Below are positions 35,601 through 55,280 of a stretch of DNA of 59,586 nucleotides, piece after piece. The translations under genes and the position numbers were made by a program. A model generated the notes under the pieces. That model worked only from the letters and a program-made list of their open reading frames with translations. It was not told where the DNA came from and did not search any database. Source of the stretch: Candidatus Chloroploca sp. Khr17 (lineage in GTDB: Bacteria > Chloroflexota > Chloroflexia > Chloroflexales > Chloroflexaceae); contig NZ_RYFF01000020.1 in assembly GCF_004138165.1 (NCBI RefSeq), positions 33,982-93,567 on the forward strand, given 5' to 3'. Position 1 is the first letter of the stretch. Each line of letters starts with the position of its first letter.

Positions 35601-36896
35601 CTATCGCCAATCGGCGATCATAATAGCGCTACCTCTGGAAGGAATGCCTCCTCCGCCAGCAACTCTTCGGCCATTGCCGTCGAGAACAGTAATAGTCACT
35701 TCTTGACCTACTTGCAAACCACATAAACGAGCATTCCCACCAGTATCAAAGCGACCACTTAGACCAATTCCATCCACCACGAAGTACCAACCTGCAGGAG
35801 TAATACCATTAATTTTAACCGAGATGCAACGAGGATCGTCATTGTAATTCACTACTCTGAACCGAAGCCTCTTAGCTTCAGGTTGAGGTGCTGGTACGGG
35901 TGTTGGTGGAGGTCTGAGACGATCTAAGGCTGCTTGCGCAACTGATGTATTTGAAATAGGGAGAGCGACAGCTTTGGCATAGATGCGTCGAGCATCACTA
36001 AGATTACCTTGCCGTTCGAGTTGTTCGCCATATGCAATGTATGCATCATAGAGCAGAGCATTGCTATCAAGAAAATTCGCTTGTATTGCAGCTAACTCCT
36101 CGAACTTAATTGCTGCATCACGCCATTGACGCTTCTTGTTCAATGCTACTCCATCAAGGTAGAGTACTAAGATTTGCTGCTGAGCAAGAGCCAACTGATG
36201 TGACGGATCAACGGCAAGCGCTGCATTGAATTTATCAAGTGCATCAACTGGCTGCTCTCCCCTAATGAGTTGAATTCCCCAATTGTAGTAGGTAGAACTC
36301 AACTTTTCGGTTACATCTAGATAGTTTCTGTCACTCTGGTAAATGGACTGAAAAGCATCGGCTGCATCACGCCATCGCTCTTTGGTGTAAGCATCGACTC
36401 CTTTCCTATAGTTTAGTGCGTTTACCGTTCGGGTATCTGGGGTTGGAGATCGTGCCGCGATAGAGGTTCTGGACGGAGAAGTTCTGGGTGTAGCTGAGGG
36501 CCTTTGTTGCTCTGGTCTAGAGGTCGGTTGAGTGCGCACCGGTGTAGCGGTATCAGCGCTGGCTACTACTACAGCAGCTGGCTCACGATTAGGCGACTGG
36601 CTAACCTCGGGAGGAGGTGTGCCATTACGCCCAATGATTACACCAATCAGCACCCCCACAATGAGCAAGACACCAACCCCGATTGCGATCACAATTGGTG
36701 GAAAAGTTCGTTGTGCTATGCCTCGTGTAGGCGGTGTTGACCGTTGAACCTGCTTTTCAGGAACATCAATCGGCCCCACCTCTTTCTGCTGGAGATACTG
36801 TTGATACTCTTCATCATTAGCATCGATCTCACCGTGTTTGTTAAATGTGGGCATAAACATCCTCGCCTGGCAAAAACGTGCGGTTAATTCCACCAC
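35601..36896 (-). CDS. Single-pass membrane protein with a Pro/Thr-rich linker and TPR-like repeats. It is the last gene of the minus-strand island.
   Basis: TM segment FPPIVIAIGVGVLLIVGVLIGVIIG, followed by TPR-like helical repeats. GC content is lower than the flanks. Confidence 0.55.
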   Translation of the reverse strand: MVELTARFCQARMFMPTFNKHGEIDANDEEYQQYLQQKEVGPIDVPEKQVQRSTPPTRGIAQRTFPPIVIAIGVGVLLIVGVLIGVIIGRNGTPPPEVSQSPNREPAAVVVASADTATPVRTQPTSRPEQQRPSATPRTSPSRTSIAARSPTPDTRTVNALNYRKGVDAYTKERWRDAADAFQSIYQSDRNYLDVTEKLSSTYYNWGIQLIRGEQPVDALDKFNAALAVDPSHQLALAQQQILVLYLDGVALNKKRQWRDAAIKFEELAAIQANFLDSNALLYDAYIAYGEQLERQGNLSDARRIYAKAVALPISNTSVAQAALDRLRPPPTPVPAPQPEAKRLRFRVVNYNDDPRCISVKINGITPAGWYFVVDGIGLSGRFDTGGNARLCGLQVGQEVTITVLDGNGRRVAGGGGIPSRGSAIMIADWR

Positions 36897-36931
36897 AACT
36901 GACTACAGATAAGAATACATAAGCGTACAAA

Positions 36932-37774
36932 TCAACGTGTTAAAGCGCGTTGAACCATTGCCGAAGGGCGCAGAGCTTGATCACTCTCGAGAAACGCCCG
37001 CGCCATCCGCATGGGTTGGTAGCGGCGCGAACCTACCACCACGACACTATCCTCAAGCGGATCCGCTAGATCCCAACGCCCCAGTCCATGACGTACCAGT
37101 ACCTCGCCGATGTAAGCACCAAATGTACGTACATTGGCTGTAAGCAGATCTTCATCCCGTAGGAATGTACGATGTTCATTGTCTACATTGAACTCGAAAC
37201 GTTCCAGGCTCTCGACGGAGTAGTCGAGAGCAAGATCTTCATAGAGTGCCGTACGAAAACGTTCAGCTAGGGTAGCCGGTTCGAGCTCTTCCGCATCCGT
37301 GTCTTCATCATACGTATCACCATTGAAGGCACGGTAGATGAGCTCAATGGTAGCTTGGAGGTGCGCTATCGTCTGAGTCACTGTTGCGGCCGTGAACGTT
37401 GGTAGTGGACGATCACAGATCAAGCAGAGGTCACGATCATGATCGAAAGATAGACATGCATCCACTAAGTCATTGTTCATTTGGCTCATTATCAATGCAA
37501 GGGGACTGATATCTTCCCCTTCCTCAGCCGCATACAAGGGCGTTATGCAAAAACGCACATACTCATCGCCAAGTGGCCCTATCTGGGGATATGCCATAAG
37601 ACGGAATGTGCCGCTCGTAGTAGGCCCAATCGGACACTCGATGTCGAAATAGATAATAGGTTGATCGCTATCAGGATCTTCAACGTCGTAGACAAGCCCT
37701 GCTGTGGTGAAAGCAGTCGTAAAAGATATAGACACAGGCTTACTCCTATTACGGTATCTGACGAATTTCCACAT
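36932..37774 (-). CDS. Acidic cytoplasmic hypothetical protein of 280 aa.
   Basis: ORF with reasonable codon usage. No recognised motifs. Confidence 0.5.
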   Translation of the reverse strand: MWKFVRYRNRSKPVSISFTTAFTTAGLVYDVEDPDSDQPIIYFDIECPIGPTTSGTFRLMAYPQIGPLGDEYVRFCITPLYAAEEGEDISPLALIMSQMNNDLVDACLSFDHDRDLCLICDRPLPTFTAATVTQTIAHLQATIELIYRAFNGDTYDEDTDAEELEPATLAERFRTALYEDLALDYSVESLERFEFNVDNEHRTFLRDEDLLTANVRTFGAYIGEVLVRHGLGRWDLADPLEDSVVVVGSRRYQPMRMARAFLESDQALRPSAMVQRALTR

Positions 37775-38390
37775 TTTTACGCTTCGCGGCTGTAATACGC
37801 TGCTTGATTATCGCATTTTGTTCAGGTGTGGTGTTCTTTGGCTTTGGAACCGCGACAACAAGATTGCTATTCTTGCTGGATAAAGCGTTTAATTCGGGAT
37901 TTTTATTTGATTTAAACTTCTTGTCCTTATAAGATTTGACTTGTGATATCTTTCTGTTGAGATTTTTTTGATCAACACCAGCGATACCCTTTACCGGTCG
38001 ATAATTTTCAATCAATTCAAATTTAAATTTTTTCGGATCAGTACTCCGCTTTAGCACCCTAAGTGTGTCAACACGTTTTCTATTCTCAAGTGCTACTTCA
38101 GAGAAAACATCTCCGCGCTTAATTTGCTTATAGTTTGGCGGTGTTTTTCCCTGCAAAGTAGTTGCAGACTTCGGTTTGCGATTGTGTAATTTTGCATGGT
38201 AATTTGTGGAGATTTTGTTGAATTTATGTCCATTAGCTGTATTTCGCCGCAGTTGTGTTCGCTTAAGCTCATTTGACGAAGAGACATTGCGTGCGGCAGC
38301 TTTCATTTTTGTTTTGGAGATCGGAACGGAGATGCTACTTCTATTTACTTTGGGTGTGCCATGCGTAGATTTGCTGCCAACTTTTTTCAT
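37749..38390 (-). CDS. Extremely Lys-rich basic low-complexity protein of 213 aa.
   Basis: MKKVGSKSTHGTPKVNRSS... with over 20% Lys. The coding DNA is only about 37-40% GC against the ~62% genome background. Confidence 0.5.
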   Translation of the reverse strand: MKKVGSKSTHGTPKVNRSSISVPISKTKMKAAARNVSSSNELKRTQLRRNTANGHKFNKISTNYHAKLHNRKPKSATTLQGKTPPNYKQIKRGDVFSEVALENRKRVDTLRVLKRSTDPKKFKFELIENYRPVKGIAGVDQKNLNRKISQVKSYKDKKFKSNKNPELNALSSKNSNLVVAVPKPKNTTPEQNAIIKQRITAAKRKNVEIRQIP

Positions 38391-38410
38391 TTCACACCCC
38401 TATACATTCA

Positions 38411-38977
38411 TTACTTCTTACGCACAATCTTTGGTCTGCCCTGGAAACGTCCGAGCCGCCGCGCCTGTTCGATATGCTGTTCGTTGCGCTCTTGCATCTG
38501 TGCAGCTTCAAAATCGCGCAGGATCTCGTCGGGTTTCTGTAGTGGTTCGGCATGGGGCATAAACATGCTGCTGAGTGCTGCCAACCCCACGAGACCATCA
38601 ACTGTCTTCACCGCAGTGTAGGCTTTGGCCTGATTGAACTTGCCTTTGAACCAATTTAGTTTAGATATTTGATTCGGTGTGGGGGATTTTGGCTGATTCG
38701 AGCCACGAACAGTAGGGTGCTGCAGACCTCCTCGCACGTTGCGTGTTGGCAACGTACTGCTTGGCTTCGCCTTAACTTGTTTTAGTGGTGGCGTCCGAAC
38801 CTTTGATGTTGGGTGCTTCGCCAGTTTGCGTGTCGCTTGCTGCAACTTGACTGGTGTAACCCGCTGCCGGGCGGTTGTTGAAGCAACTGGTTGTAGAGCA
38901 CGTACTGGCGGCGTAGGCTTTGGGGTATTGGGGTTGCTCACACCTGCCCCACTTTTAGTACTCCGATTAACCTTCAT
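38411..38977 (-). CDS. Basic Lys/Pro/Thr-rich protein of about 188 aa. It is a probable paralogue of the preceding gene (shared KVNRS N-terminus).
   Basis: Its ATG overlaps the TGA stop of the upstream ATPase gene (ATGA), which indicates translational coupling. Confidence 0.5.
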   Translation of the reverse strand: MKVNRSTKSGAGVSNPNTPKPTPPVRALQPVASTTARQRVTPVKLQQATRKLAKHPTSKVRTPPLKQVKAKPSSTLPTRNVRGGLQHPTVRGSNQPKSPTPNQISKLNWFKGKFNQAKAYTAVKTVDGLVGLAALSSMFMPHAEPLQKPDEILRDFEAAQMQERNEQHIEQARRLGRFQGRPKIVRKK

Positions 38978-41787
38978 GCGCCTGCTCCAATCAACATTTG
39001 CAGCACCTGGGCATCTACGGGTAAGCCCGAGTTGCGCATCCAATCAGCAGCCAAACGCAGGTAGACCCGTCGCACTTCGGCGTAGCGCGGGTGCGCACCA
39101 AATCGTGCCGTACAGATCTGCTCAATCTGGGTATGGTCCAGGGCACGATCTCCATAGCCCCCCAGAACATCTTCAATCGTTTCAGGCAAGCTATACCCAT
39201 CTTGTGCAAGCACCCACTTAGCTGCGGCATGGGGATCGTCCGGTAGGATGCTAACGGTCTGCACTTGGTTTGGCATCGGTGGCTGCCAGAGCGCCGCTGG
39301 CGGCATCTGCAACGGGCGGCGGGCCATCATCGCCTTCACGGCCTCATCGGAGTCATCAAAGATCGGGCGATCATCGGGCGTCTGAAAACGATCCAGGTAG
39401 TTGCCAACCTGCACGAAGATCGGGCGACTATCGGGGCCTCGTACAATCACTTGGCCCTGCCCGAGTGAGCGTACGTATTCGCGCTGACGCTCATTCAGGT
39501 TCATCACCTCACAGAAGAGCTTAAAGCTCTCCTGATCTTCGAGCCGATGCATGATTTTGAGGTTCGTATTGCCTAGCGCACCATTGACCAGTTGGGTTGG
39601 GATCTGCTCAGCGATCAAGATCCCTTCCCCAAACCCGCGCACCTCAGCCAAAATATTGGCGAAATCCTCTCCACCACGACTCCGTGCGTCAGCAAGATCT
39701 TCGCTACCCTTGTGTCCAGCCGACATAAGCCGATGGGCTTCTTCGATCAGAGTCATGTGCAGTTGTTTGCCGCGTTGTTCGGGTGGGAGGCGTTTGTAGC
39801 GGCTCTGCAATTCTTGGGTCAGTTGTACCAACAAAAAGGCCATAATCAGGGCGCTATCTTCGGGGGAGCCAACCCTTCCTAATTCCATGACGGTTGGCCG
39901 TGAGAGCACTACACTGAGCGGGGCTGGAGCCGTGGTATTGACAATTGTCCCTGCATTGAGCAGAAGATCACGCATGCGAATTTCGGCTGATTGGCGTACC
40001 CGGTCTTTGGCCTCCTCATCAAAGCCCGCCGTCATCAACTCGCTCACCGCAACGAGCGTCGTGTAGAACGCAGCCAAGGTGGGGGTGCCTACCCCCGGAT
40101 CGCCCCCCTTGCCCTGTTCGAGATTCCAACCTGCATCGGTATAGACCTGACGCAGGGCTGCGCGATAAATCGCTGGCAGAGGATCCCACATCGAGAAGGC
40201 GGCCATAAAACAGCGCATCAACAAACTGAGATGGGTCTTAAGCAAGATCCCCTCTGCCACGTAGAAGGGGTTGAAGCGGAAAGGCGTGGTGGTTTCATCA
40301 CCCAGCGTAAAAATTAGCAGATCGTCGGCCATTTGTGGGTCGGCCATGAGTAGCCGATAGTCCGGTTTGTCAATTGGGTACATCACCAGGAATGGTACCT
40401 GGTGGTCGGCCCAAAGTTGGGCCAGCATGTGCAGGCATGTGTTAGTTTTACCGCTTCCCGTAGCCCCTGCGATGAGACCGTGGCGGTTAAGGTCACGGAT
40501 CGGAATTTGCATATACTGGCCAGTACGCGTGCCACGATGGATGATCTCACCGAGGTTCAAACAGGGCACGTTGGTGAGCAGGCGATCGGTTGGCAAAACG
40601 AATGGCTCGTCGCGTACCTCAAGCCCGGGTAGATAACCACTCTCGGGGGGGATCGGCAGACGGAAGGCCCCCGCCGCTTGGTCGGTACTGACGAGATAGC
40701 GCAAGCGTACTGTCGCCTGATCAACGCGTGTTGGCCCCCAGGCTCCGTACTCAAGAAACGCAAAGTTATAACGTGCAATCGCCAGATCTTGATCATCCTT
40801 AGGGCTTTCGCTGGCCCATTGACGTGGCTCCGGCGTATTGTTTTGAATCAACTCGGAACCCAGCGCTTCCATTACATCATTAGGTGCATAATCCGATCCT
40901 ATCACTTGGATTTTTATGCGGAATAAATGATTTCTTTTGTTGATCAGAGGCATAAAGGTACGGGAAATATCATCAAAGCGTTCACGGCGATACAAATCAA
41001 ACCATGATTTGGACTCAACTTCTGCTGTGAGATTGCGATAACGTGAGAGCAGTAAGTTAATCTGGAGTAGCTCTTCGTGGAAGAGCACTGTTGGTCGCAA
41101 GCAGATGCTTGCGACACAGGTTTGCTCTTGTTGCACCAGCGTTTCTAAGAAGCGGCCAAAAGCAGAAGCATCAAAAACTGGACTAAAGGGATGTGGGAAG
41201 TAGCCAATGGCATCAGTACCTGCGTATGGATCAAAATCCTCAAACTTGCGAATCTCGACCAATTGGTTCATGCCTACCTGTTCAATGGGAATAGGTAACA
41301 TTGAACGCATGAAGTCGTCTTCGCCTAACGGCTCTAATGGGTAGTTGAAAGGATCTTCGAGAGGGTAGTGACTACGAAACTTGCACCAGAGCTGCCAGCA
41401 CAGATTTTTGGCGCGATTGCGGTTGGGATGGAAAGCCTTGCCAAGAAAGACAATCTCAATGGTTGGGCGATGTCCTGTCACTTGACTTGGTCGAGCAATA
41501 AACCGCAGATCGAAGGCGGCACTACCCTCGGCAATCATCCGAGCGTTGATCAAATCATTCAGGAAGCGGATTTGACGCAGCGTAATCAACCGAATACGAC
41601 TCAGTTCACCTCCACTGAGCGTACGCGTGAAATCGCTGGTTAAAAAACTAGGAATGAACGGCACCCGTGCTGCAAAGATAGCGTGCGCCCCCTGCTGGCG
41701 AGTGACTTGCACCCCACTACCCCCCCAACTCTCGGCATAGTGGAACTCATCGGGATTGCTGACGTAGATGAACGGCTCTTGCAACAT
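38974..41787 (-). CDS. HerA/FtsK-superfamily (DUF87/AAA_10-type) P-loop ATPase of 937 aa with a large N-terminal extension.
   Basis: Walker A GATGSGKTNT; Walker B plus EAH block HMTLIEEAHRL; sensor KIMHRL. AGGAAGG Shine-Dalgarno sequence upstream. Confidence 0.75.
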   Translation of the reverse strand: MLQEPFIYVSNPDEFHYAESWGGSGVQVTRQQGAHAIFAARVPFIPSFLTSDFTRTLSGGELSRIRLITLRQIRFLNDLINARMIAEGSAAFDLRFIARPSQVTGHRPTIEIVFLGKAFHPNRNRAKNLCWQLWCKFRSHYPLEDPFNYPLEPLGEDDFMRSMLPIPIEQVGMNQLVEIRKFEDFDPYAGTDAIGYFPHPFSPVFDASAFGRFLETLVQQEQTCVASICLRPTVLFHEELLQINLLLSRYRNLTAEVESKSWFDLYRRERFDDISRTFMPLINKRNHLFRIKIQVIGSDYAPNDVMEALGSELIQNNTPEPRQWASESPKDDQDLAIARYNFAFLEYGAWGPTRVDQATVRLRYLVSTDQAAGAFRLPIPPESGYLPGLEVRDEPFVLPTDRLLTNVPCLNLGEIIHRGTRTGQYMQIPIRDLNRHGLIAGATGSGKTNTCLHMLAQLWADHQVPFLVMYPIDKPDYRLLMADPQMADDLLIFTLGDETTTPFRFNPFYVAEGILLKTHLSLLMRCFMAAFSMWDPLPAIYRAALRQVYTDAGWNLEQGKGGDPGVGTPTLAAFYTTLVAVSELMTAGFDEEAKDRVRQSAEIRMRDLLLNAGTIVNTTAPAPLSVVLSRPTVMELGRVGSPEDSALIMAFLLVQLTQELQSRYKRLPPEQRGKQLHMTLIEEAHRLMSAGHKGSEDLADARSRGGEDFANILAEVRGFGEGILIAEQIPTQLVNGALGNTNLKIMHRLEDQESFKLFCEVMNLNERQREYVRSLGQGQVIVRGPDSRPIFVQVGNYLDRFQTPDDRPIFDDSDEAVKAMMARRPLQMPPAALWQPPMPNQVQTVSILPDDPHAAAKWVLAQDGYSLPETIEDVLGGYGDRALDHTQIEQICTARFGAHPRYAEVRRVYLRLAADWMRNSGLPVDAQVLQMLIGAGA

Positions 41788-41806
41788 ACGGGTGCCTTCC
41801 TGATCA

Positions 41807-43195
41807 CTAAGCGTAAGCGGTCATAACGGCTTCGACCAGCACAAGTAGATCGCACTGGGGCGTCCAGTTAGCGAGCGGTTCAGGCATGAAGCGCTGCTCT
41901 TGTCCATCGAACTCTACAAACATAGTTGGAGCCTCTTGGGGATACCGAGCCGTACAACTAAAATAGATGCCGAGGGTGTGCCCAAGCTGATCACGCAGGC
42001 TGACACTGACCAGGAAGACGTTCGCATCTTCGTGTAGGGCGGCGTTTAGTCCCTGTGCTAGCATTGCGCCTATCTCGTTGCGCAGGCGTTCGCCAGCACC
42101 TGCGCCGCTGAAGCGTGCGACGGGTGACGGTAAAGCGGGAACAGTCACACCATACATCCCTCCGAGAGTAGCTGTAGGTGGGGCTACGGCCTGTCCGGTG
42201 AGCGCCCCAAGCAACACCTGTTGAAGGTCATTGCTACCTGCCGCCGATGTCCCCATCGGCAGCATCCCCGCCTTCGCCATCTCGGTCAGGGCCAGTAAGC
42301 GTTGTCCATCTGTTTGCGCTTTATCACCAAAGACACGCGTGTACATGTCTGGATTGGTCAGCAAGAGATATTGCGGTGTCAATTCAATCATGCGCGAGAT
42401 ATTCATCTGTGTGAGCGCCTGTGCCATCGCAATCTCGGCCTGCGAGTTCGCCTGGATCTTCGCGACCTCGGCATCAGTTTGCGCCTCGCGGGTACGCATA
42501 TAAACGTCACGTAATTTCTTGTCCAGTTCTTCAGCACCCGCAATACGCGTGATCTGGACGTTCGAGACTCGTATTCCCAAGTTGTCTTCAATGCCGCGTT
42601 GCTGCAATTGCTGTGCAACCATGTAACCTGCATGACCGCCCGCCTGGAAATCCTGGTATTTAGCAATTGATGCAGTGATCGAACGAATTGATTCCATCAC
42701 CGTATCATAGAGCCTCGTGAGCGGCTGTTCGACGACAAGCGCAACGTGTTCAGGATGAATTATCTGATAACTGACTGCAACATCGAGATCAACTGGCAAT
42801 GCAATCTTCTCACCCTGGGGCGGCTGATAGAAAATCGTAAACTCCTTCGTCGTTGTTATATCCAGCGTGCGCTCACGCGTATTGACCACGTAGAGATCAA
42901 TGCGATTCATCACGGGAAACGAGAGCGCGTGATAACTCCCTTCTTGCAGCACTTCGAGCACTCTGCCATCCCCGGTCACAACGACGGTAGTGCCAGCCAT
43001 AACCCGAAAGATACGAAAGATACTGGTGAAGACATTGTTATGAACACGTACTGGACCAAAGACAAGGGGTGAATTACTTAGATCAGCAAACGGTTCACGC
43101 AGGAAGTCATCAAGCGAGCCCTGTCTGCTCGCTGCTTCCTTATCGTTAACGTGACGACGGTTTAGGGGCATGGTCTGGTCACGGTTAGTTCCCAT
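41807..43195 (-). CDS. SPFH/band-7 (stomatin/prohibitin-like) domain protein with a C-terminal UEV/RWD-like (inactive E2) domain.
   Basis: SPFH core VVVTGDGRVLEVLQEGSYH...DLDVAVSYQI plus a coiled-coil segment. C-terminal block GIYFSCTARYPQEAPTMFVEFDG carries the YPxxxP flap and lacks a catalytic Cys. Start placed at the ATG with an AGGAAGGAG Shine-Dalgarno sequence at 43195. Confidence 0.7.
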   Translation of the reverse strand: MGTNRDQTMPLNRRHVNDKEAASRQGSLDDFLREPFADLSNSPLVFGPVRVHNNVFTSIFRIFRVMAGTTVVVTGDGRVLEVLQEGSYHALSFPVMNRIDLYVVNTRERTLDITTTKEFTIFYQPPQGEKIALPVDLDVAVSYQIIHPEHVALVVEQPLTRLYDTVMESIRSITASIAKYQDFQAGGHAGYMVAQQLQQRGIEDNLGIRVSNVQITRIAGAEELDKKLRDVYMRTREAQTDAEVAKIQANSQAEIAMAQALTQMNISRMIELTPQYLLLTNPDMYTRVFGDKAQTDGQRLLALTEMAKAGMLPMGTSAAGSNDLQQVLLGALTGQAVAPPTATLGGMYGVTVPALPSPVARFSGAGAGERLRNEIGAMLAQGLNAALHEDANVFLVSVSLRDQLGHTLGIYFSCTARYPQEAPTMFVEFDGQEQRFMPEPLANWTPQCDLLVLVEAVMTAYA

Positions 43196-43229
43196 ACGAG
43201 CCAACTCCTTCCTGAGGCGCACAAGGTTG

Positions 43230-44453
43230 TTAGGTTTGATTGGGTAATATGCTAAGCTGAATGACCGGAAGATCAGCCAAGATGTCCGAAGCTTCGGCGG
43301 CTGCTTCTTGTTCACTCATCTTGAGGCTTTCGGCTACGAAAGCTGAATAGTTGCACACCGGACATTGAGCATTCTTCGGCACATCAATGAAGAGGCTCTC
43401 TAACGGCTGTTGAAAGATCCACTCCGCACGATTACCGAAGAGGAGCCAGTTCGTCGGCAGATCCGGTAGCGTGTTCTGCTTATCGCGCAGAAGCGTTAGT
43501 AACGCCATACGCGCCATTAACAGCGCAATCATACCCACATCAACCCCTAGACCTGGCTGAGCCAGTAATTCTTCCATACGTGCGGGATCTTCGTAACCCA
43601 GCGAGAAATCCTGTGTAGCGGCAGGGGGAGGGCCAAAAAAATCGGCAATGACGGTCTGAAAACAGGCGTAGCAAGCACCCTCGGAGGGAATTGCACGGAA
43701 GATATCACCCCCAAAGGCGCGATTGTAGGCTGCGGCATAGATAGCCGGGATCCCTCTTGGCCAGCACACGGTATTGACCGCCAACTTTGAGTCTTCATGA
43801 TCAGTAGCGACCACAACCAGATCACACCCGGTAACAATGGTAGCTAGTTGATCCTCATGGCCTAACACGTTCAACTCGTAGGTCTCGACGGTAATTGCGG
43901 GCGAGATGTCGTAGAGCAGATCGCGCAGGGCACGGGTCTTATAGCGCCCGATATCGTGGAGGCCACACGCATGACGTGCAATATTGTGAACTTTGAGCCG
44001 ATCAAAATCCACCAACCGCATCTGCCCTACTCCGCAACGAGCAAGCTGGCTCGCCACCACTGAACCACCTGAGCCGAGGCCAATCACGGCAATGCACGTA
44101 TTGGCGAGGCTGCTCACTTCAAAGATGCCGTGCATACGTGAGGCATAGTCAGTATGCAAACGGATGACGTTGCAGGAAATCGTTTCCCATCCAGTAGCCT
44201 TGCTTTGCCAACCAGCAACCTGATCTGGCAACTCATCGTCAATGTTGAGGACTATTTCTTCCGGGGCCAGTTCTGTTGTTGGCGGTACAGGGCTGCGATA
44301 CCAGCGACCTAGGTACGCACCGGACGCCTCAAGGATTCCCCTGATTTGCACGACATCGCCATCGTCATAACGGTAGCCGTAGAGCTTGCCCTCTGTCTGT
44401 GCAGCAGTACCAAGCAACTGGTTAATCAAGCTATCAGGAACGGTAAGAAACAT
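43230..44453 (-). CDS. E1-like ubiquitin-activating enzyme of the ThiF/MoeB/HesA family, with an N-terminal extension and a C-terminal Cys cluster.
   Basis: VIGLGSGGSVVASQLARCGVGQMRLVDFDRLKVHNIARH (GxGxxG plus a D-x-D ... NxxR block); LVVVATDH; CPVCNYS. Confidence 0.8.
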   Translation of the reverse strand: MFLTVPDSLINQLLGTAAQTEGKLYGYRYDDGDVVQIRGILEASGAYLGRWYRSPVPPTTELAPEEIVLNIDDELPDQVAGWQSKATGWETISCNVIRLHTDYASRMHGIFEVSSLANTCIAVIGLGSGGSVVASQLARCGVGQMRLVDFDRLKVHNIARHACGLHDIGRYKTRALRDLLYDISPAITVETYELNVLGHEDQLATIVTGCDLVVVATDHEDSKLAVNTVCWPRGIPAIYAAAYNRAFGGDIFRAIPSEGACYACFQTVIADFFGPPPAATQDFSLGYEDPARMEELLAQPGLGVDVGMIALLMARMALLTLLRDKQNTLPDLPTNWLLFGNRAEWIFQQPLESLFIDVPKNAQCPVCNYSAFVAESLKMSEQEAAAEASDILADLPVIQLSILPNQT

Positions 44454-44464
44454 CGGCAGACTCC

Positions 44465-45865
44465 CTATTGCAGTGGCTTCCCTTGATCTGGTTGAACCGA
44501 TGTTGGAAATACATAGCTGCGGTTGAACTCAGCGCAGAGGTCAGCCGCACTACGACAGGCCAGTTCAACTTGACGTACGATCAGACGACCTTGAAATTCG
44601 AGCAACTCACCAATGCGCTGGGATGGACGTGGTTGGGTCAAGGTTTCAAGCACATTGCGCACTACATCACGTAGGCGTATATGGGTACGCCAACCACCAG
44701 GAAAGAGTTGTTCAGTCACAATACGTACTACGTTATCATCACTCAACACGACTTGGACTTCAGGCGCTTGCTGCGGAAACTGTGAACCAGGATCAAGCTT
44801 AATAGCTTTGATCTGTAGCGGCTCTGTTTGCGCAACTGGCGCGACATTTACCATCCCCTCCGGCGTTTGCTGGGGTGCTGGGATTATCTCAGGGATATTC
44901 AGGGTCATTAGGGGCGGATGCGTAAAGGTAATCGTATACCAAACTCCGTTATCATCGCGCGTATGTACCTCCAGATGCGCCCCAGATCGCAAGGTCTGGC
45001 AGTACTGTTCCAGATCCTGTTGTTCGCGTGCAAAGCGGCCAGGAAGGGGAGGGATTGGCGGAATGCTTGCATCAGGTGGTGAACCTGAGAAAGGTGGTAT
45101 TTCAGGCGGCACGAAATCAGTCGCTGAACGACGAGTGTAAGAGGAACTTTCTAGATCGATGACCTCCAGGGTATCAGGAGGTTCCACATCTAGTGTGTAA
45201 GGTGAGGTATGTGGCTGCACCGGAGGATGGGAATGCAGATTGGCCCGGGCAGCACGGAGATCGGCCGGGTTGACTCCCCAGCGATCAGCAGTTCCTGATG
45301 TTGCGTGAGGAGGTTTTGGCGCAACTGTCTGTTGTTCTAGCGCAACCAGACCATCCAACAAGACGCGAAGGTCGCCTTCGACAAGCTCACATGGCACAGG
45401 CGTCGCACTCATCGTCTCACGGGGATAGTAGTGCCCATGGAGCAGAAATGTACCATCTTCAATGGTTACAAGTGGGGTGAAGATACCGTGGGGCAAATGA
45501 TAGGACTCATCGCTCAAGATATCGACCACCTGAAGCGTATCACCCGAACTTGGCCGATGCAAACCTGGCGGATGCTTATGCCACTCACCAACATAATCAA
45601 CGTGGTAGGTGGCGTAGTGCTGACGCCACGTTTCCAGGTCGCGTTGGCGAGCAAGTGCATCTGGAGCATAGGTATGCGCCCGTCGGTCGGCATTGCTACC
45701 AGGACCAGAGGCTGCCACAACGACGAGGTGGAGTCCATCGGGGAGTTGGAACATACGTCCAACCAGGATGCCGCCGGTCTCACGTCCAGGGCTCGTACAT
45801 GCCTCGTCGTACATCCGCTGATAGACATCTTGTTGGGCCAGATAGACGGTATTTGGTACTGGCAT
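44465..45865 (-). CDS. JAMM/JAB (MPN+) metalloprotease, a deubiquitinase-like protein, with a long Pro-rich C-terminal extension.
   Basis: ETGGILVG (Glu) and GEWHKHPPGLHRPSSGD (HxHx7SxxD). The start follows the E2 stop by 1 nt. Confidence 0.8.
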   Translation of the reverse strand: MPVPNTVYLAQQDVYQRMYDEACTSPGRETGGILVGRMFQLPDGLHLVVVAASGPGSNADRRAHTYAPDALARQRDLETWRQHYATYHVDYVGEWHKHPPGLHRPSSGDTLQVVDILSDESYHLPHGIFTPLVTIEDGTFLLHGHYYPRETMSATPVPCELVEGDLRVLLDGLVALEQQTVAPKPPHATSGTADRWGVNPADLRAARANLHSHPPVQPHTSPYTLDVEPPDTLEVIDLESSSYTRRSATDFVPPEIPPFSGSPPDASIPPIPPLPGRFAREQQDLEQYCQTLRSGAHLEVHTRDDNGVWYTITFTHPPLMTLNIPEIIPAPQQTPEGMVNVAPVAQTEPLQIKAIKLDPGSQFPQQAPEVQVVLSDDNVVRIVTEQLFPGGWRTHIRLRDVVRNVLETLTQPRPSQRIGELLEFQGRLIVRQVELACRSAADLCAEFNRSYVFPTSVQPDQGKPLQ

Positions 45866-45866
45866 G

Positions 45867-46322
45867 TTAGTCTGCCTCAATTCCAGGCCAATAGGTTTTC
45901 CCTGACTCAAGCCAGGTTTCGTAGGCAAAGAACCAAGCGGCGGCTACCGCGATCACGGTTGCTGCCGTGGTTTGCTGGGCAAACGAACGATCACCAGGGT
46001 AGTAGAGGCATAGGTGTCCATCGTTATACTGGTGCTTGAGGCGGCCTGCTTGCTCGTCCTTCCAGACGGTAATCGCTGGGTTAATGGGATAAACTTTAGG
46101 CGGATCATCGGGAAAGTTGTCAGGATAGTAGAGTGCAATCTCATAGCGCCTTTCGCGATTACTCTCTAAGGTGCCGATCCAGACCAACTGGTTACTATCA
46201 CGCACGAGCTGAAACTGGGGAAAGCGCGTTTCCATAGCTCTCTTTTCCAGTACGAGTCGTGCGGGATTAAGGTCATACCACGCTGCATACCAGCGCATCG
46301 GACGGAGAATAGTTTGGCCCAT
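45867..46322 (-). CDS. E2-like ubiquitin-conjugating enzyme with a prokaryotic UBC fold and a catalytic Cys.
   Basis: ALYYPDNFPDDPPKVYPINP flap plus HQYNDGHLCLYYPGD. This is analogous to the UBC HPN...GxICL active site. Confidence 0.75.
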   Translation of the reverse strand: MGQTILRPMRWYAAWYDLNPARLVLEKRAMETRFPQFQLVRDSNQLVWIGTLESNRERRYEIALYYPDNFPDDPPKVYPINPAITVWKDEQAGRLKHQYNDGHLCLYYPGDRSFAQQTTAATVIAVAAAWFFAYETWLESGKTYWPGIEAD

Positions 46323-46387
46323 CGTAACTACCCTTATTCGTTGCTGCTTAACAGTGCTTTAGATGTCTATGTCCACAAGTGGATCGT

Positions 46388-46588
46388 TTATGCTCGTGTA
46401 AATAGGGCAAACCAGCGCTGCGGTTTAAGCACTGTCTTGCTCTGTGGATCGGTCTGCGCGACCTTGGGATCTTCTGGGACGTGCATCTTGCCATCCGGAC
46501 TGACGACAACTTCCTGTGCGGTGGCAAGACGCTTCTTAAGTTCTTCCAGGCTGGATTGTGGGCTACGAGGGGGTTGTGGCGTGCTCAT
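46388..46588 (-). CDS. Small hydrophilic ORF of 66 aa in the 318-nt gap between the membrane UEV gene and the E2 gene. Its coding status is doubtful.
   Basis: MSTPQPPRSPQSSLEELKKRL... There is no beta-grasp-like hydrophobic pattern and no C-terminal GlyGly. Confidence 0.2.
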   Translation of the reverse strand: MSTPQPPRSPQSSLEELKKRLATAQEVVVSPDGKMHVPEDPKVAQTDPQSKTVLKPQRWFALFTRA

Positions 46589-46640
46589 GGTGGTGTACCT
46601 CCTGGGATTTGCTGACACGACTGGTATACGTACAAGGGAA

Positions 46641-47357
46641 TTAGATAATACGTTCGGTATATTGTGCCCAAACCGACTGTTGCGTCGGTGGCTGGTTCGT
46701 GACTTGAGCATAAGAAATGAGGCCCAAAAGGTTGTTGACCACTGCCAGCAGTGAACTATTGCCATTCCAACTGCGCAGAACAGACGAATCAAGTGCGAGG
46801 TGATGTTCGGCTAGTTCACCACAGGCATCAAACCCGAGCATGGTGGCAATGAGCTGCGGTGCGATAATTGGATAGTCATCCGTACAAATGAGATGGATCG
46901 AGACATTCTCCCCATCACTCCGTGCCACCCGGATCTGAACACAGTACTCTTCGACATCCGGGCGCCCGGCGAGGCTCACCGCCTCGTAACCATTACTGCG
47001 TAACTTCGCTACTTCTTGCGTCAAACGTTGCACCACATTTATTGGGGTAACATCAATCACTTGGCGACTTGCAACTGGGGTTCCGGCTGGTGTAAAACCA
47101 CCCGCGCCGGAACTCCAGGTTGGTACCTGCGATGAAAGCGTCGAAGTGTCTTCATGGATTGGCATTGGAGGCGGGCGCATGGTGGGACTAGCCGGTGGGA
47201 GAATGAACGCTTTACCCTGTTTTGATGTTACTTCTGATTGGCTCGTTGTGGCGCGTCGCCCACTCCCGCCTCGTTGGAGTACGAAGACAACGAGGATCAG
47301 GACGACGAGAACGAGGACGCCCCCACCAGCAATGATCAGCAGAATTGATGTATCCAA
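46641..47357 (-). CDS. N-terminally membrane-anchored protein with a C-terminal UEV/RWD-like domain.
   Basis: TM segment ILLIIAGGGVLVLVVLILVVFVL. The UEV-like block EEYCVQIRVARSDGENVSIHLICTDDYPIIAPQL has no Cys at the catalytic position. TTG start preceded by an AGGAGG Shine-Dalgarno sequence. Confidence 0.6.
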   Translation of the reverse strand: MDTSILLIIAGGGVLVLVVLILVVFVLQRGGSGRRATTSQSEVTSKQGKAFILPPASPTMRPPPMPIHEDTSTLSSQVPTWSSGAGGFTPAGTPVASRQVIDVTPINVVQRLTQEVAKLRSNGYEAVSLAGRPDVEEYCVQIRVARSDGENVSIHLICTDDYPIIAPQLIATMLGFDACGELAEHHLALDSSVLRSWNGNSSLLAVVNNLLGLISYAQVTNQPPTQQSVWAQYTERII

Positions 47358-47365
47358 GACGCCTC

Positions 47366-49150
47366 CTAGCGGGGTATGATGCGTACCAGATAAGTCGCAC
47401 TGGTACTCAGATCCAGGTTCGCTTCGCCTACCATCGGCAATTCCGCCAGGCTCAGCAAGTAACGTCCACTGGGTAGGGCCGCACTCGCGACACCTGTCTG
47501 ATCAGTCACGATCTGGCGATTGCCGCTCGATCCCACAAGGTTGAGTACCAGATTAGAGGTAGGTGCAATAATCAGCAGATTGACCGGATCGCCATTGATC
47601 TGCGTTGCGAGACGACGATCCGTAAGCAAACGCGTCCATTCAGATGCATCGAGTCGGGTTGTAATGATTTGATAGGCACTCGTGCTTGCAAGCAAAGCTT
47701 CGGCTTCGCGCTTGAGTTGGCGCGCACTTTCCCCACGATCCTCTGCAACCTGAGCAAGGCTAAGTGCGGCGTTGGCCTGAGCGAGCGCGTCGGTGCCAAC
47801 TGTCCCGCCGCGTTCGAGCAAGGCTAGACCGTAACCGACATAAGAATCGTAGAGCCACTGCTCGACGGTGCGTACCGCAGGGTCGCTTGTGTTAGGCCTT
47901 AATTGCACGGCCTGTTCAAGTTCGCTGATCAGGGCGGGCCATGTAGCGACACTTGCATCGCGGAATTGTGTCGCCCGTGCAATCCACTTCAAACGATCAG
48001 CTAGTCCTTCAAGATCTTGCTCCAGAGTTGCAGCAAGTACATAATGCTCGTGAGACTCAATGACATCCGTGGCAAAGAGGAGGTCACCCCATGCCAGCTG
48101 GGCTTGTGCCAAGCGGGTCTTGACGCCTATCGCTGCTTCAGGACTCTGCGCTTCAGGGTGGAGAACATGGATCTGTTCAAGCAGGGCTACTACTTGTGCC
48201 CAACTTGCCGTGGTATTCACTGCCCATAGTTGCTCGGCCTCAGTCCAGAGCGTCTTCGTCCGGGCTTCGATAACAGCAACTAGTCCAGCCTGAGCATCAG
48301 AGGAGGCTGGATCAAGCGCGAGAGCCTGGCGAAACATGGCTTCCGCCTGATCAAGTTGGTTCGCTTCGAGGAGTGCGGACGCATAACGCTCATAGGCGGT
48401 GATGAGCGGGATTGGATTGGCAACCAGGCTACCGCAACTACCACCCACCCCGCTCTGACCACGGTTGTGCATTGCTTCGAGGGTATGGGTTACTTGCGCG
48501 AGGGATTCGCGATCACCGACTGCATAGGCTTGAGCCACGAACTGCTGCTCGGAAGCGCACGGATCGTAGAGCAAGGTATAGTAGAGTAGCAACCCCCCGG
48601 CAATGAGCAGGGTGACACCTCCACCTACCACGGCTAAGATCTTCCCTGTGGCGGAACGACGCGTTGGGGTAGGAAGGGGACGTTCTTCACGAGGTGGCAA
48701 CTCCTTAGGGAATGGCACATCAAGTGGTGGCATGGGGGCCACCGGTTCAGCAATGCGTGCAAGCCGTAGATTGGAACTCTGTACGCTGTCCTGGACTTCC
48801 AGAACGATTTCGTAGAGCATCTGGCGACTCGACCAACTGAGACGGGTTTTTGACTCGACATCAATCGGGAGTTCTTGTAACTCGCCGTAGCTTGTTGTGC
48901 CGGGTGTGGTCACGGTGACCACAAGATTGGGCGCCGTAGCTGGAAAATTTGCATCAAGCTGGAAGTAGAGATGCACCGGCTGTGGCCCTTCGTGCGTGTC
49001 ACGAACCAACTCTACTGTTAAGTAGTAGCGCTGAGCACTCGCGTCCTGCTGGAGGTCGCAAGCATAGCCCATATCACGGATGGCCTTGACCTCTTGACCA
49101 ATGCGCTCAGCGTGACTTTGGTCAGCGGCCATGGGGGGGAGGGATGACAT
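47366..49150 (-). CDS. N-terminal UEV/RWD-like domain, then one TM helix, then an extracytoplasmic TPR-like helical-repeat region. 594 aa.
   Basis: YYLTVELVRDTHEGPQPVHLYFQLDANFPATAPNLVV; TM segment ILAVVGGGVTLLIAGGLLLYYTLLY; TPR-like repeats. Confidence 0.65.
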   Translation of the reverse strand: MSSLPPMAADQSHAERIGQEVKAIRDMGYACDLQQDASAQRYYLTVELVRDTHEGPQPVHLYFQLDANFPATAPNLVVTVTTPGTTSYGELQELPIDVESKTRLSWSSRQMLYEIVLEVQDSVQSSNLRLARIAEPVAPMPPLDVPFPKELPPREERPLPTPTRRSATGKILAVVGGGVTLLIAGGLLLYYTLLYDPCASEQQFVAQAYAVGDRESLAQVTHTLEAMHNRGQSGVGGSCGSLVANPIPLITAYERYASALLEANQLDQAEAMFRQALALDPASSDAQAGLVAVIEARTKTLWTEAEQLWAVNTTASWAQVVALLEQIHVLHPEAQSPEAAIGVKTRLAQAQLAWGDLLFATDVIESHEHYVLAATLEQDLEGLADRLKWIARATQFRDASVATWPALISELEQAVQLRPNTSDPAVRTVEQWLYDSYVGYGLALLERGGTVGTDALAQANAALSLAQVAEDRGESARQLKREAEALLASTSAYQIITTRLDASEWTRLLTDRRLATQINGDPVNLLIIAPTSNLVLNLVGSSGNRQIVTDQTGVASAALPSGRYLLSLAELPMVGEANLDLSTSATYLVRIIPR

Positions 49151-49207
49151 AGCAACTACTCTCTTGTAAGCGACGCGAATGCCCAGCGTTGACGAGCCTT
49201 ACGAAAC

Positions 49208-50017
49208 TCAGATCCGGCCATAGAGATCAGTAACAATCGTTGCCAGACGACACGAACCGTCCCAGGGGAAGAAGATTCCGGAACCAATATTGAGCGAGGT
49301 GCCATGGCGCTCGACAACCACGGAAGGTGGTTGCTGAGGGTAAGTTGGCTCACACACCATATAGATCGTCGTCCCATCCTGTGGTCGGGTAACGGTTACG
49401 CAGCACGTGCCGTCTTGGAGGGTATTGATCTGGACGGTGCCAAATTGGGCCAGTGCTATGCGCTCACCAGCGATACGCTCGGCGAGATCCAAACTAGGAC
49501 GAGGTGTGGCTCCCCCTACCGTCTGGTGCGGGCTAGGTGGTGGATCAGGTGGTAGTAATGGCCCCGAACTACGTAGCCCAGCAGTAGGGGAGGCGTTCGT
49601 TCTAGCTATGAGTCCGCTCGTCCGGAGATTGCCGTCCGACCTAGAGGCTATAGTAGGCCCGCGGCCCATTGAACTGCCAAGCACGAGGCCAAGCAGTAGG
49701 CCGGGAGCTGTCCCAAGCAGCATTGCCACACTGTACATACGCAAACTCCCAAGGGCTAGTCCTAGATTATCGCTCAGCAGCATATTTAGGACACCACAAA
49801 GCAGCACAAAGACGAGCGCACTAGCTGCGGGGCCAACGAAGATCGCCCAGTGGTAACCTTGTGCGACACGCCCGCGTAAGAGTAGACCTCCACCCAGGCC
49901 CCCGATGATCAGCCCGATCATTGCCAGAGCTAGAACCACCAGCGGGTTCGTGCTGATCAATAGGCCCATGCCCAGGAAGAAGAGACAACTGACGATGATA
50001 ACCATTGCTGCAAGCAT
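49208..50017 (-). CDS. Four-TM membrane domain fused to a C-terminal UEV/RWD-like domain.
   Basis: N-terminal 4 hydrophobic helices. C-terminal block TTIYMVCEPTYPQQPPSVVVERHG. Confidence 0.6.
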   Translation of the reverse strand: MLAAMVIIVSCLFFLGMGLLISTNPLVVLALAMIGLIIGGLGGGLLLRGRVAQGYHWAIFVGPAASALVFVLLCGVLNMLLSDNLGLALGSLRMYSVAMLLGTAPGLLLGLVLGSSMGRGPTIASRSDGNLRTSGLIARTNASPTAGLRSSGPLLPPDPPPSPHQTVGGATPRPSLDLAERIAGERIALAQFGTVQINTLQDGTCCVTVTRPQDGTTIYMVCEPTYPQQPPSVVVERHGTSLNIGSGIFFPWDGSCRLATIVTDLYGRI

Positions 50018-50020
50018 GGG

Positions 50021-54956: not shown

Positions 54957-54984
54957 GCCCAATGCGCTGTAACAAAGATGTTTT

Positions 54985-55005
54985 TTTGACGCAAAGGCGC
55001 GAAGG
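54985..55005. repeat. R3 repeat in reverse complement (tttgacgcaaaggcgcgaagg).
   Basis: Reverse complement of ccttcgcgcctttgcgtcaaa. Shares the flanking CATCAAR with the copy at 56213. Confidence 0.7.
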
Positions 55006-55020
55006 CTTGATGTATCTCCA

Positions 55021-55060
55021 GTTAAGAGCTCACAGGTCTGCCAGACCTGTGAGCTCTTAA
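55021..55060. terminator. 19-bp perfect-stem hairpin of the R1 family, after the sigma-factor gene.
   Basis: gttaagagctcacaggtctg-cc-agacctgtgagctcttaac. Confidence 0.6.
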
Positions 55061-55280
55061 CGCTATGCCTTGCAAACCCGTCTTCGGATCTGTTTTTCTG
55101 TGCTGATTGATTCATATTACTTTGTGACCCTGAATTTCTCATGTTACTCTACGTTCAGGTTTGCAAGCGCTTTTCTGAATAAATTGTTACAAAGAAGGTA
55201 GCGAAGTAGGGTTAGTTGATGCAGCGCATGACATGTGCTATGCTACTCTACCGTTTGAGAAATGAAGATAGAGTGATCCT

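Follow-up and report, generated by a model that had tools for sequence, protein, structure and literature searches.

An FtsK-HerA-superfamily ATPase, usually accompanied by an SPFH protein that ends in an inactive E2-like (UEV) domain, forms the core of a broader family of Chloroflexota gene loci in which the accessory modules, Ub-like in some lineages and built on Hsp70 in others, are interchangeable. We describe the family from a window of 59,586 nucleotides, by which we mean the whole of the analysed stretch of contig NZ_RYFF01000020.1 of Candidatus Chloroploca sp. Khr17; all of the genes discussed in it lie on the minus strand. The gene system is apparently undescribed so far. A search of the full-text literature, with subscription-only papers outside its coverage, returned no description of the combination of ATPase, SPFH and Ub-like or Hsp70 genes, in agreement with an initial sequence-only reading of this DNA, which could place the combination in no described system.

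The ATPase gene (38974–41787) encodes a protein of 937 residues, recognized from its open reading frame and by domain searches. A Walker A motif, AGATGSGK (40447–40470), and a Walker B motif with an EAH signature, HMTLIEEAH (39733–39759), place it in the FtsK-HerA superfamily; G441, G444, G446 and K447 of the former and E682, E683, A684 and H685 of the latter are invariant in 69 sequences, and the RecA-like ASCE core can be superimposed on those of HerA, VirB4 and FtsK. A family-specific alpha/beta region (residues 1–400) is followed by the ATPase domain (approximately 405–800) and a variable helical tail (approximately 850–937); there is no transmembrane (TM) segment. Pfam returned HerA_C (4e-8) and then weak matches to FtsK, DUF87, TraG and TrwB. 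Because these matches start only at about residue 413, the N-terminal region of 400 residues (40588–41787) is left unannotated, and as a profile it found no match in PDB. This region is kept across the family, is folded with confidence in the predicted structure (a monomer model) and occurs in 170 representative clusters, which include stand-alone proteins of about 400 residues and TPR fusions of about 1450 residues. The open reading frame, the motifs and Pfam thus confirm the protein as first described, a 937-residue P-loop ATPase of HerA/VirB4 type with an N-terminal extension of about 400 residues.

We conclude that the ATPase is a predicted ring-type motor of the HerA/VirB4/DptH clade with an N-terminal region of its own. 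The HerA label originally given to it stands as far as the clade is concerned and falls for HerA proper: structural comparison ranks DptH-C and VirB4 closest, then HerA; no match to a HAS-barrel was found, nor any Pfam match N-terminal of residue 413; and NurA, Sir2 and DUF4297 partner genes are absent from every locus examined. The ATPase differs from known members of the clade in its N-terminal region, to which no relative is detectable, and in its company, DptF/G and T4SS partners being missing along with NurA, and the conserved partners being the SPFH-UEV protein and charged proteins. We also considered the C-terminus (…IGAGA) as a conjugated tail like that of CBASS CD-NTases. This idea was dropped because the last ∼100 residues vary and the GAGA ending is confined to the window.

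The SPFH gene (41807–43195) ends 19 nt before the ATPase gene. Its product of 462 residues contains a Band_7 domain (residues 65–249; 34.5 bits, Pfam cut-off 23.6) and, in the AF2 model, a long coiled-coil helix, a disordered linker (310–359) and a C-terminal UEV/RWD domain (41810–42112; motif YPQEAPTMF). Foldseek searches with the model returned erlin, stomatin, prohibitin, HflK/C and QmcA at 6e-9 to 1e-7. The C-terminal domain (residues 362–462) is alpha-beta4-alpha, and the AF2 secondary structure of residues 367–461 fits a UBC-like fold; the central RWD domain of FANCL is a Foldseek match (prob 1.0, 26% identity), and the catalytic HxN...C is absent from the sequence. A single HMM, which scores this domain at 4e-29, recovers the six UEV domains together and, at 5e-6, the active E2 of the operon as well. 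The SPFH-UEV fusion predicted directly before the ATPase is real. Architecturally, the protein corresponds to the SPFH scaffolds that form cages, with an inactive E2-like domain added. It resembles HflK/C-FtsH, QmcA-YbbJ, erlin1/2, prohibitin and stomatin in its SPFH domain and long helix (∼1e-8), and, as for HflK/C-FtsH, its gene is paired with that of a predicted ring ATPase. It departs from the cage-forming complexes in its C-terminal UEV/RWD fusion and in the absence of a clear TM segment or membrane anchor from the window protein (the Chloroflexus aggregans orthologue has N-terminal hydrophobic segments); moreover, it is partnered by an FtsK-HerA-type rather than an AAA+ ATPase, and neither NfeD nor a protease is encoded.

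On its other side, the TGA stop of the ATPase gene overlaps the ATG of the next gene at 38977 (GC-ATGA-AG). The Oscillochloris orthologue shows the same 4-nt overlap, and the translational coupling that had been proposed for the ATPase and the Lys-rich gene is upheld. That gene (38411–38977) encodes a Lys/Arg/Pro-rich protein of 188 residues. Beyond it lies a gene for a 213-residue protein (37749–38390; 17% Lys) whose N-terminus is basic and disordered and whose C-terminus is a candidate nuclease-type effector domain (CDI_toxin_EC869_like, 1.5e-3, below threshold); its counterparts in other loci carry UPF0102 or WHH domains. Next comes a 280-residue acidic protein (36932–37774; cluster c12), a candidate chaperone or immunity partner whose N-terminal half is YbjN/T3SS-chaperone-like: its orthologues match YbjN/TY-Chap1 at 3.5e-5, and that of C. 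aggregans is annotated as YbjN. The gene order is beyond chance, because it recurs in many independent Chloroflexota contigs. Promoter and terminator scans gave fewer sites than in shuffled sequence, and a PHROGs search was uninformative.

The Lys-rich protein exemplifies a wider pattern: in almost every locus, what follows the ATPase is a protein whose low-complexity N-terminus is of extreme charge. We surveyed 26 loci with a downstream gene, in nearly all of which the first 70 residues of the protein that follows contain either 19–26% K+R with at most 7% D+E, or 20–40% D+E (L010 is a mild exception); the distance from the ATPase ranges from −32 to +88 nt. The downstream gene is therefore present as claimed, whereas Lys-richness does not extend to the family, since the charged N-terminus is acidic in most loci. 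These include two with E1/E2 (L011 and L029), and C. aggregans has a basic protein in the absence of E1/E2, which weakens the idea that E1/E2 use the Lys-rich proteins as dedicated lysine acceptors. Toxin domains are statistically solid in two loci only. In L011, a WHH nuclease (2.6e-18) is followed by SUKH (1e-25), as in polymorphic toxin-immunity systems, and UPF0102 (3e-5) supports the same pattern in L001; ten further downstream charged proteins had no Pfam matches, and the majority of the cargo proteins overall are likewise unmatched. An HExxH-motif protein (c4) is paired with a small c6 protein in about 11 loci. We looked, too, for charge covariation between ATPase and cargo. Position 591 of the ATPase is Glu in 5/5 basic-cargo ATPases and Arg, Lys or Gly elsewhere; the covariation is unconvincing because other columns show the reverse trend and all basic-cargo loci fall within a single subclade, so that phylogeny accounts for the pattern equally well.

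Upstream of the SPFH gene, the window operon carries the Ub-like module and UEV proteins. It begins with a JAB-UEV-TM protein with a large C-terminal region (50021–52735; domain searches, UEV HMM 2e-17), followed by a multi-TM protein with a C-terminal UEV domain (49208–50017; 3e-20), an RWD/UEV-TM-TPR protein (47366–49150; Pfam RWD 3e-3 plus TPR, UEV HMM 3e-15) and a membrane-anchored TM-UEV protein (46641–47357; 6e-21). A small conserved protein of 66 residues (46388–46588) is then encoded just upstream of an active E2 of CBASS type (45867–46322; HLCLYYP; PADLOC E2 2e-24; orthologues annotated PF26395, E2-CBASS), and the series is completed by a JAB peptidase with a C-terminal UEV domain, recognized by domain searches and the UEV HMM (44465–45928), and a Cap2-like E1 of the ThiF family (43230–44453; Pfam ThiF 5e-35, PADLOC E1-E2 6e-41). 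The 66-residue protein has nine orthologues in a family of 55–68 residues, with an invariant KPxRW[F/Y] and then a variable tail; three of the nine terminate exactly at RWF. It has no Gly C-terminus, the only small conserved gene in the window ending in KPxRW[F/Y].

Pfam and PADLOC revealed no beta-grasp Ubl gene in the window, which sets it apart from Bil/Bub-type ubiquitination, and no cyclase (CD-NTase) or cyclic-nucleotide effector profile matched any operon protein, which sets it apart from type II CBASS. The latter system has homologues of its E1, E2 and JAB in Cap2 and Cap3; here, however, E1 is encoded apart from E2, six additional E2-like domains occur that are inactive (four of the six on membrane proteins), and a conserved 55–68-residue protein adjoins the E2.

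How general this arrangement is became clear from a first census of 31 loci retrieved for the ATPase family. E1/E2/JAB are present in 7/31 and Hsp70 and/or J/zinc-ribbon membrane proteins in approximately 14, and none of the 31 has both modules; two SPFH paralogues occur in three. In the sister loci, Hsp70 and J-domain/zinc-ribbon membrane proteins take the place of E1/E2/JAB and the UEV membrane proteins, and Ub-type and Hsp70-type ATPases separate in the ATPase tree, the Ub-type forming one clade. For at least 16 E1 homologues, an ATPase homologue lies on a contig of the same length, and the co-occurrence of the ATPase with ThiF/E2 genes that had been suggested as a check is conserved. The coupling of ATPase and SPFH to E1/E2/JAB is accordingly a conserved link, but the picture of a pair simply embedded in a Ub-like operon has to be given up, the core being broader and the modules swapping. 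C. aggregans has neither module, and its minimal cluster is made up of genes for SPFH-UEV, a 4-TM protein, the ATPase, a K/R-rich protein and the YbjN-like protein. A third ATPase branch (L010/L032) carries a second, unrelated Ub system consisting of a YukD-like Ubl-E2 fusion, ThiF (E1), Prok-RING_1 and JAB; the YukD-like Ubl is confined to this branch, and SPFH is undetectable in both of its loci. No SPFH was detected in L007 and L008 either, where J/Zn-ribbon genes occupy the upstream flanks. The E1/E2/JAB/small/UEV module also stands alone, in L034.

We tentatively favour, at somewhat less than even confidence, a putative machine at the membrane by which charged effectors are handled or exported, the Ub-like and Hsp70 modules being alternative accessories. 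The ATPase and SPFH-UEV would be the conserved core of this Chloroflexota-specific machine, which would most likely unfold and then export or deploy the charged effectors encoded just downstream. An SPFH oligomer would provide the membrane platform, on which the UEV domain may dock the JAB enzymes and the membrane adaptors that likewise bear UEV domains. The charged N-terminal tails of effectors, presumably presented by the YbjN-like chaperone, would be threaded by a hexamer of the ATPase. In the window lineage, the CBASS-type E1/E2/JAB may mark or regulate either cargo or machine, the modifier perhaps being the 66-residue KPxRW[F/Y] protein; in the sister lineages, Hsp70 recruited by membrane J-domain proteins would do the equivalent job. 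No signal peptide, channel or pore component for export was identified, and the nearest structural relatives of the ATPase (DptH, VirB4 and HerA) act on or with DNA, which counts against export.

Several known systems offer partial parallels to such a machine. Type VII secretion (EssC/EccC, YukD, LXG/WXG toxins) likewise has a motor of the FtsK-HerA superfamily, and its small polymorphic toxins, encoded beside their immunity genes, resemble the candidate toxin–immunity pairs of the present loci; a YukD-like Ubl is found here in the L010/L032 branch. In Staphylococcus aureus, a flotillin (SPFH) scaffold assists T7SS assembly. The hallmarks of type VII systems (a multi-domain EssC/EccC ATPase, WXG100 substrates, EssA/B or EccB/D/E) were, however, not found. 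As in T3SS class I chaperone–effector–ATPase sets (CesT, YbjN superfamily), an acidic YbjN/TY-Chap1-like gene directly follows a basic effector-like gene near the predicted ring ATPase; here there is no injectisome and the ATPase is not FliI/InvC-like, and YbjN-family proteins have roles outside secretion too (PMC5398634).

The main alternative, which we regard as unlikely, is anti-phage or abortive-infection defence, in which the CBASS-type E1/E2/JAB would regulate a DptH/HerA-like DNA motor and the charged nuclease-type proteins would be intracellular suicide or restriction effectors restrained by their partners. CBASS Cap2/Cap3 profiles score best for E1, E2 and JAB (PADLOC; PF26395), the C-domain of the restriction protein DptH is the best structural match of the ATPase, with HerA defence complexes matching too, and PADLOC mad8 scores 1e-18. 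The GC content of the operon is lower than that of its flanks, and transposases and AbiE genes occur in related loci. There is also precedent for Ubl conjugation within conflict systems of multicellular bacteria: the FtsH ternary systems of filamentous bacteria combine a Ubl-E2 fusion, E1, prokaryotic RING and JAB with an ATPase/chaperone module (Kaur et al., 2020; PMC7159879). The L032 branch has the same enzyme set, although the MoxR, vWA, FtsH and EAD adaptor domains of those systems are missing here, the ATPase belongs to another family, and neither SPFH-UEV nor the Hsp70/J alternatives are described for them. Against defence, the window lacks a CD-NTase, a nucleotide-sensing effector and a beta-grasp Ubl, the core survives without any E1/E2, SUKH immunity genes and T3SS-chaperone-like partners typify exported toxins rather than Abi effectors (PMC3482391), and a Hsp70/J-domain membrane array is not among the known defence architectures.

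A more far-reaching reading is doubtful. E1/E2/JAB would conjugate a non-beta-grasp, largely disordered modifier of 55–68 residues, matured to KPxRW[F/Y], onto the charged effectors or the machine; UEV readers arrayed on an SPFH cage would recognize this tag and pass the substrate to the HerA/VirB4-like ring translocase, and Hsp70 and membrane J-proteins would be an equivalent, interchangeable front end. This would amount to a previously unknown Chloroflexota protein-targeting pathway and, if true, to a bacterial counterpart of the sorting at membranes that ubiquitin and UEV domains direct in ERAD or ESCRT.

Membrane-protein quality control or extraction, in the manner of ERAD or HflK/C-FtsH, would have the SPFH cage recruit the Ub-like or Hsp70/J system and a ring ATPase extract proteins. 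The cages of erlin1/2, prohibitin, stomatin and HflK/C-FtsH are the top Foldseek matches, the interchangeable Ub-like and Hsp70/J modules are both proteostasis machines, and numerous partners sit in the membrane and have their UEV or J domains in the cytoplasm; erlins, for their part, cooperate in ERAD with the p97 ATPase and E3 ligases. We nevertheless consider this improbable, given the patchy distribution of the loci inside one phylum in variable, low-GC contexts, the lack of an encoded protease and an ATPase that is not AAA+, and it accounts neither for the charged proteins, conserved as they are, nor for the nuclease domains or the immunity-like genes. That the ATPase is instead a VirB4/VirD4-like motor of a conjugative or other DNA-transfer module of a mobile element, with basic proteins that coat DNA, is very improbable: no relaxase, VirB6/8/9/10/11, pilin or integrase was recognized within 10 kb of any family locus retrieved with the ATPase (TrwC/TraG neighbours appear only at the distant locus L033), the window contains neither tRNA nor integrase, no T4SS genes are recognizably co-located with the ATPase, which has no TM anchor, the grouping with conjugative and mobile-element genes that would have spoken against the initial reading is not borne out, the genes that recur beside the ATPase encode SPFH, Hsp70 and Ub-like proteins, and the cargo is unlikely to bind DNA because most of its N-termini are acidic.

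If real, the system would add one more multi-gene machine to the short list of bacterial systems that use Ub-like chemistry, and one in which that chemistry is exchangeable for an Hsp70/J-protein module on a single ATPase–SPFH chassis; this exchange would be a natural experiment on the role of Ub-like tagging in bacteria. An SPFH scaffold, E2-variant readers and a ring ATPase jointly drive membrane-protein sorting and extraction in eukaryotes, and their combination here may bear on the origin of such pathways. It may also represent a new route of toxin delivery in filamentous, monoderm-like bacteria. The cultivated C. aggregans, with its five-gene minimal version, is open to direct testing.

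The ATPase gene of the window (38974–41787) lies in a tight minus-strand operon of ∼15 genes that runs from 52735 down to ∼35600, with intergenic gaps of −26 to +65 nt. In operon order, and all on the minus strand, the products are a JAB-UEV-TM protein (50021–52735), a multi-TM-UEV protein (49208–50017), an RWD/UEV-TM-TPR protein (47366–49150), a TM-UEV protein (46641–47357), a conserved 66-aa protein (46388–46588), an active E2 (45867–46322), a JAB-UEV protein (44465–45928), an E1 (43230–44453), an SPFH-UEV protein (41807–43195), the 937-aa ATPase, two Lys/Arg-rich proteins (38411–38977 and 37749–38390, the second of 213 aa), a 280-aa acidic protein (36932–37774) and, last, a TM-TPR protein. 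Protein matches at 100% identity assign the window to Candidatus Chloroploca sp. Khr17. The GC content of the operon region (36000–52000) is 0.48–0.54, as compared with 0.58–0.64 in the flanks (sequence before 34 kb), which suggests horizontal acquisition. Near the cluster lie two genes that encode a sigma-factor-like protein and a putative zinc-finger anti-sigma-like protein (54153–56084, plus strand; 17763–19524 in the Oscillochloris locus, L001); Chloroploca and Oscillochloris share the pair but have it on different flanks of the cluster. These genes, whose labels are putative and read off the sequence, may regulate it.

The SPFH protein exceeds the Pfam Band_7 threshold, and its model resembles those SPFH proteins that form cages, matching erlin, stomatin, prohibitin, HflK/C and QmcA at ∼1e-8. 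The C-terminal 100 residues adopt an alpha-beta4-alpha fold of the UEV/RWD type, with a YPQEAPTMF flap and without a catalytic cysteine. This domain matches the RWD domain of FANCL, and when used as an HMM seed it retrieves the operon's five other UEV domains and the active E2 (5e-6). In the ATPase, the Walker A motif is AGATGSGK and the Walker B motif HMTLIEEAH; Pfam, PADLOC and NCBIfam recognize the protein only from about residue 413, with weak matches to HerA_C, DUF87, FtsK and TraG or TrwB; its top defence-library match is mad8 (1e-18). Residues 1–400 are conserved throughout the family and fold confidently in an AlphaFold model built from 69 sequences (pLDDT 89, pTM 0.73). The ATPase stop codon and the next ATG overlap as ATGA. 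The sequence-only reading, which had described a HerA/VirB4-type ATPase with an N-terminal extension of ∼400 aa, behind an SPFH-UEV fusion and translationally coupled to a Lys-rich protein gene, is therefore confirmed in every detail.

Structural comparison of the ATPase with known motors gave 31.0 for the DptH/DndH C-domain, 30.4 for VirB4, 25.3 for HerA, 21.9 for TrwB, 17.3 for EccC and 17.2 for FtsK, and in a sequence-profile search HerA/DUF87 structures come first. These results place the protein in the HerA/VirB4/DptH branch of the FtsK-HerA superfamily. It is not HerA proper, as neither a HAS-barrel match nor a NurA partner was found. Searches with the N-terminal 400 aa detected no relative in Pfam or the PDB. 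The sequence family that this region defines comprises 170 representative clusters, among them stand-alone proteins of ∼400 aa and TPR fusions of ∼1450 aa. In the latter, the region is placed behind ∼680 aa of TPR repeats (L031, 8001–16262), and one such gene adjoins vWA and protein-kinase genes.

The ATPase has ∼270 homologues, and those with organism names are all from Chloroflexota. Comparison of 25 genome loci and further contigs by ORF clustering, tblastn and iterated HMMs revealed a conserved pair, a predicted ring-type motor and a putative cage-type SPFH scaffold with an E2-variant domain, around which the accessory genes vary. Type A loci encode the ATPase and SPFH-UEV together with an E1, an E2 of the CBASS type, one to three JABs, the small protein and several membrane proteins with UEV domains. 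This arrangement is found in the window, in Oscillochloris trichoides and in five contigs from metagenomes (7 of 31 loci in the first census). Beyond these, at least 16 E1 homologues come from contigs whose length equals that of a contig with an ATPase homologue of 54–78% identity. In ∼14 Anaerolineae loci, E1, E2 and JAB are absent, and in the complete ones the same SPFH-UEV and ATPase genes are flanked by a truncated Hsp70, up to seven paralogous J-domain/double-zinc-ribbon/TM proteins and a zinc-ribbon-TM-TPR protein. The J-domain array (L021, 4452–9910; counterparts in L012, L013, L015, L018, L020 and L022), with its 515-aa Hsp70, takes the position held in the window by the UEV membrane proteins and E1/E2/JAB. 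The two accessory sets consist largely of membrane proteins that have UEV or J domains on the cytoplasmic side, and they are mutually exclusive, occurring together in none of the loci compared. In three loci, the ATPase is followed by two SPFH-UEV paralogues. The set in Chloroflexus aggregans is minimal: an SPFH-UEV protein that has hydrophobic segments at its N-terminus, a 4-TM protein, the ATPase, a K/R-rich protein of 195 aa and a YbjN-like protein. In a neighbour-joining tree of the ATPase, the Ub clade is apart from the Hsp70 clade, and C. aggregans is nested inside the former. Transposases are present in L028, and AbiE and resolvase genes in L030.

A separate ATPase branch, type B (L010 and L032), lacks a detectable SPFH gene and carries a complete Ub system of another kind (L032, 15888–20588; L010, 15745–16827): a fusion of a YukD-like Ubl with an active E2 (HPN…C), ThiF, JAB and Prok-RING_1 proteins, one with a TM segment and one fused to Ubl. 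In L034 (4061–12198), the E1/E2/JAB/small-protein/UEV module stands alone amid housekeeping genes (ribosomal protein S16, RimM, biotin carboxylase), with no ATPase or SPFH gene within 10 kb. In L033 (982–20274), a related E1, JAB-UEV and small protein occur together with zinc-ribbon proteins and a DUF87 ATPase that is split. TraG/TrwB-like genes and TrwC relaxase genes adjoin them, suggesting that this copy is carried by a conjugative element. The Ub-like and ATPase/SPFH modules are therefore separable, yet repeatedly joined; the coupling first noticed in the window is recurrent, but its E1/E2/JAB half can be exchanged for Hsp70/J or be absent.

No beta-grasp Ubl was found in the window. A protein of 55–68 aa is encoded directly upstream of E2 in all nine readable loci of this E1/E2 type (window, 46388–46588, minus strand; L001, 5255–5443; L002, 570–734; L003, 5599–5793; L011, 4921–5103; L028, 4995–5195; L029, 4773–4958; L033, 2644–2841; L034, 8407–8613). 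Its invariant core is L-E-L-K…V-V…G…P-D-P…T…K-P-x-R-W-[F/Y]. In three orthologues the sequence stops at RWF; the rest have one to eight unconserved residues beyond this core, the pattern expected of a precursor trimmed by a JAB peptidase; we hypothesize such processing, and consider the protein a candidate non-beta-grasp modifier or UEV ligand. Peptides that end in a residue other than glycine can be adenylated by ThiF-family enzymes such as MccB.

A charged protein is nearly always encoded next to the motor gene; some of these proteins are nucleases that have a partner of the immunity or chaperone kind. Of the 26 loci with a gene downstream of the ATPase, nearly all have that gene starting −32 to +88 nt from the ATPase stop, and its product has an extremely charged N-terminus, L010 being a mild exception. 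This N-terminus is basic in the window, L001, L003, L026, L028 and L019 (K+R 19–26%, D+E ≤7%, over 70 residues), although the L019 start may be mis-called, and acidic in all remaining loci except L010 (D+E 20–40%). The L011 cargo carries a WHH HNH nuclease domain (2.6e-18), with a SUKH immunity protein (1e-25) encoded next, and that of Oscillochloris has a UPF0102 restriction-endonuclease-fold domain (3e-5); the 213-aa protein of the window has a sub-threshold CDI-toxin-EC869-like match (1.5e-3). An HExxH-motif protein (cluster c4) is paired with a small protein (c6) in ∼11 loci. The acidic protein that follows basic cargo belongs to a YbjN/T3SS-chaperone-like family and is annotated as YbjN in C. 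aggregans; the N-terminal half of the window's 280-aa protein is a member too. Most other cargo proteins had no Pfam match. Cargo is acidic in two type A loci and basic in C. aggregans, which lacks E1/E2; thus the Lys-rich protein is one form of a general charged-cargo theme, independent of E1/E2. Some downstream proteins are repetitive, with five to six near-perfect ∼42-aa repeats (RPDRPGQPGWGM-ITRS-PFDW-SNAIPP) in L032 (13856–15370) and three near-perfect acidic ∼58-aa repeats in L029 (12874–13983). ATPase residue 591 (about 40015–40017, minus strand) is Glu in 5/5 ATPases with a basic downstream protein and Arg, Lys or Gly in 18 with an acidic one, including the two closest acidic-cargo relatives, a pattern confounded by phylogeny.

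From this gene context, we tentatively favour a machine that captures charged effectors by their disordered tails, unfolds them and translocates or deploys them at the membrane. A DNA-directed defence system, suggested by the resemblance of the ATPase to DptH/HerA and by the CBASS-type E1/E2/JAB enzymes, seems to us rather unlikely, and a membrane quality-control pathway, ERAD-like or HflKC-FtsH-like, is improbable. A conjugation module is very improbable, because recognizable T4SS or relaxase genes are absent from the ATPase-family loci.

The single domains are ordinary. HerA-NurA, T4SS, type II CBASS, Bil/Bub and T7SS each have a defining partner or feature that is absent here, so the system belongs to none of them. 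The assembly, and especially the exchange of Ub-like for Hsp70/J modules on one chassis, matched nothing found in full-text searches of the open literature. The closest conceptual precedents are T7SS, the Ubl-containing FtsH ternary conflict systems of multicellular bacteria (PMC7159879), polymorphic toxin systems (PMC3482391) and the SPFH-ESCRT links noted in archaea (PMC10936438). In the effector-deploying machine that we favour, SPFH-UEV would be the platform, UEV domains would be docking modules for other UEV proteins, and the Ub-like or Hsp70 modules would be alternative means of cargo preparation or regulation.
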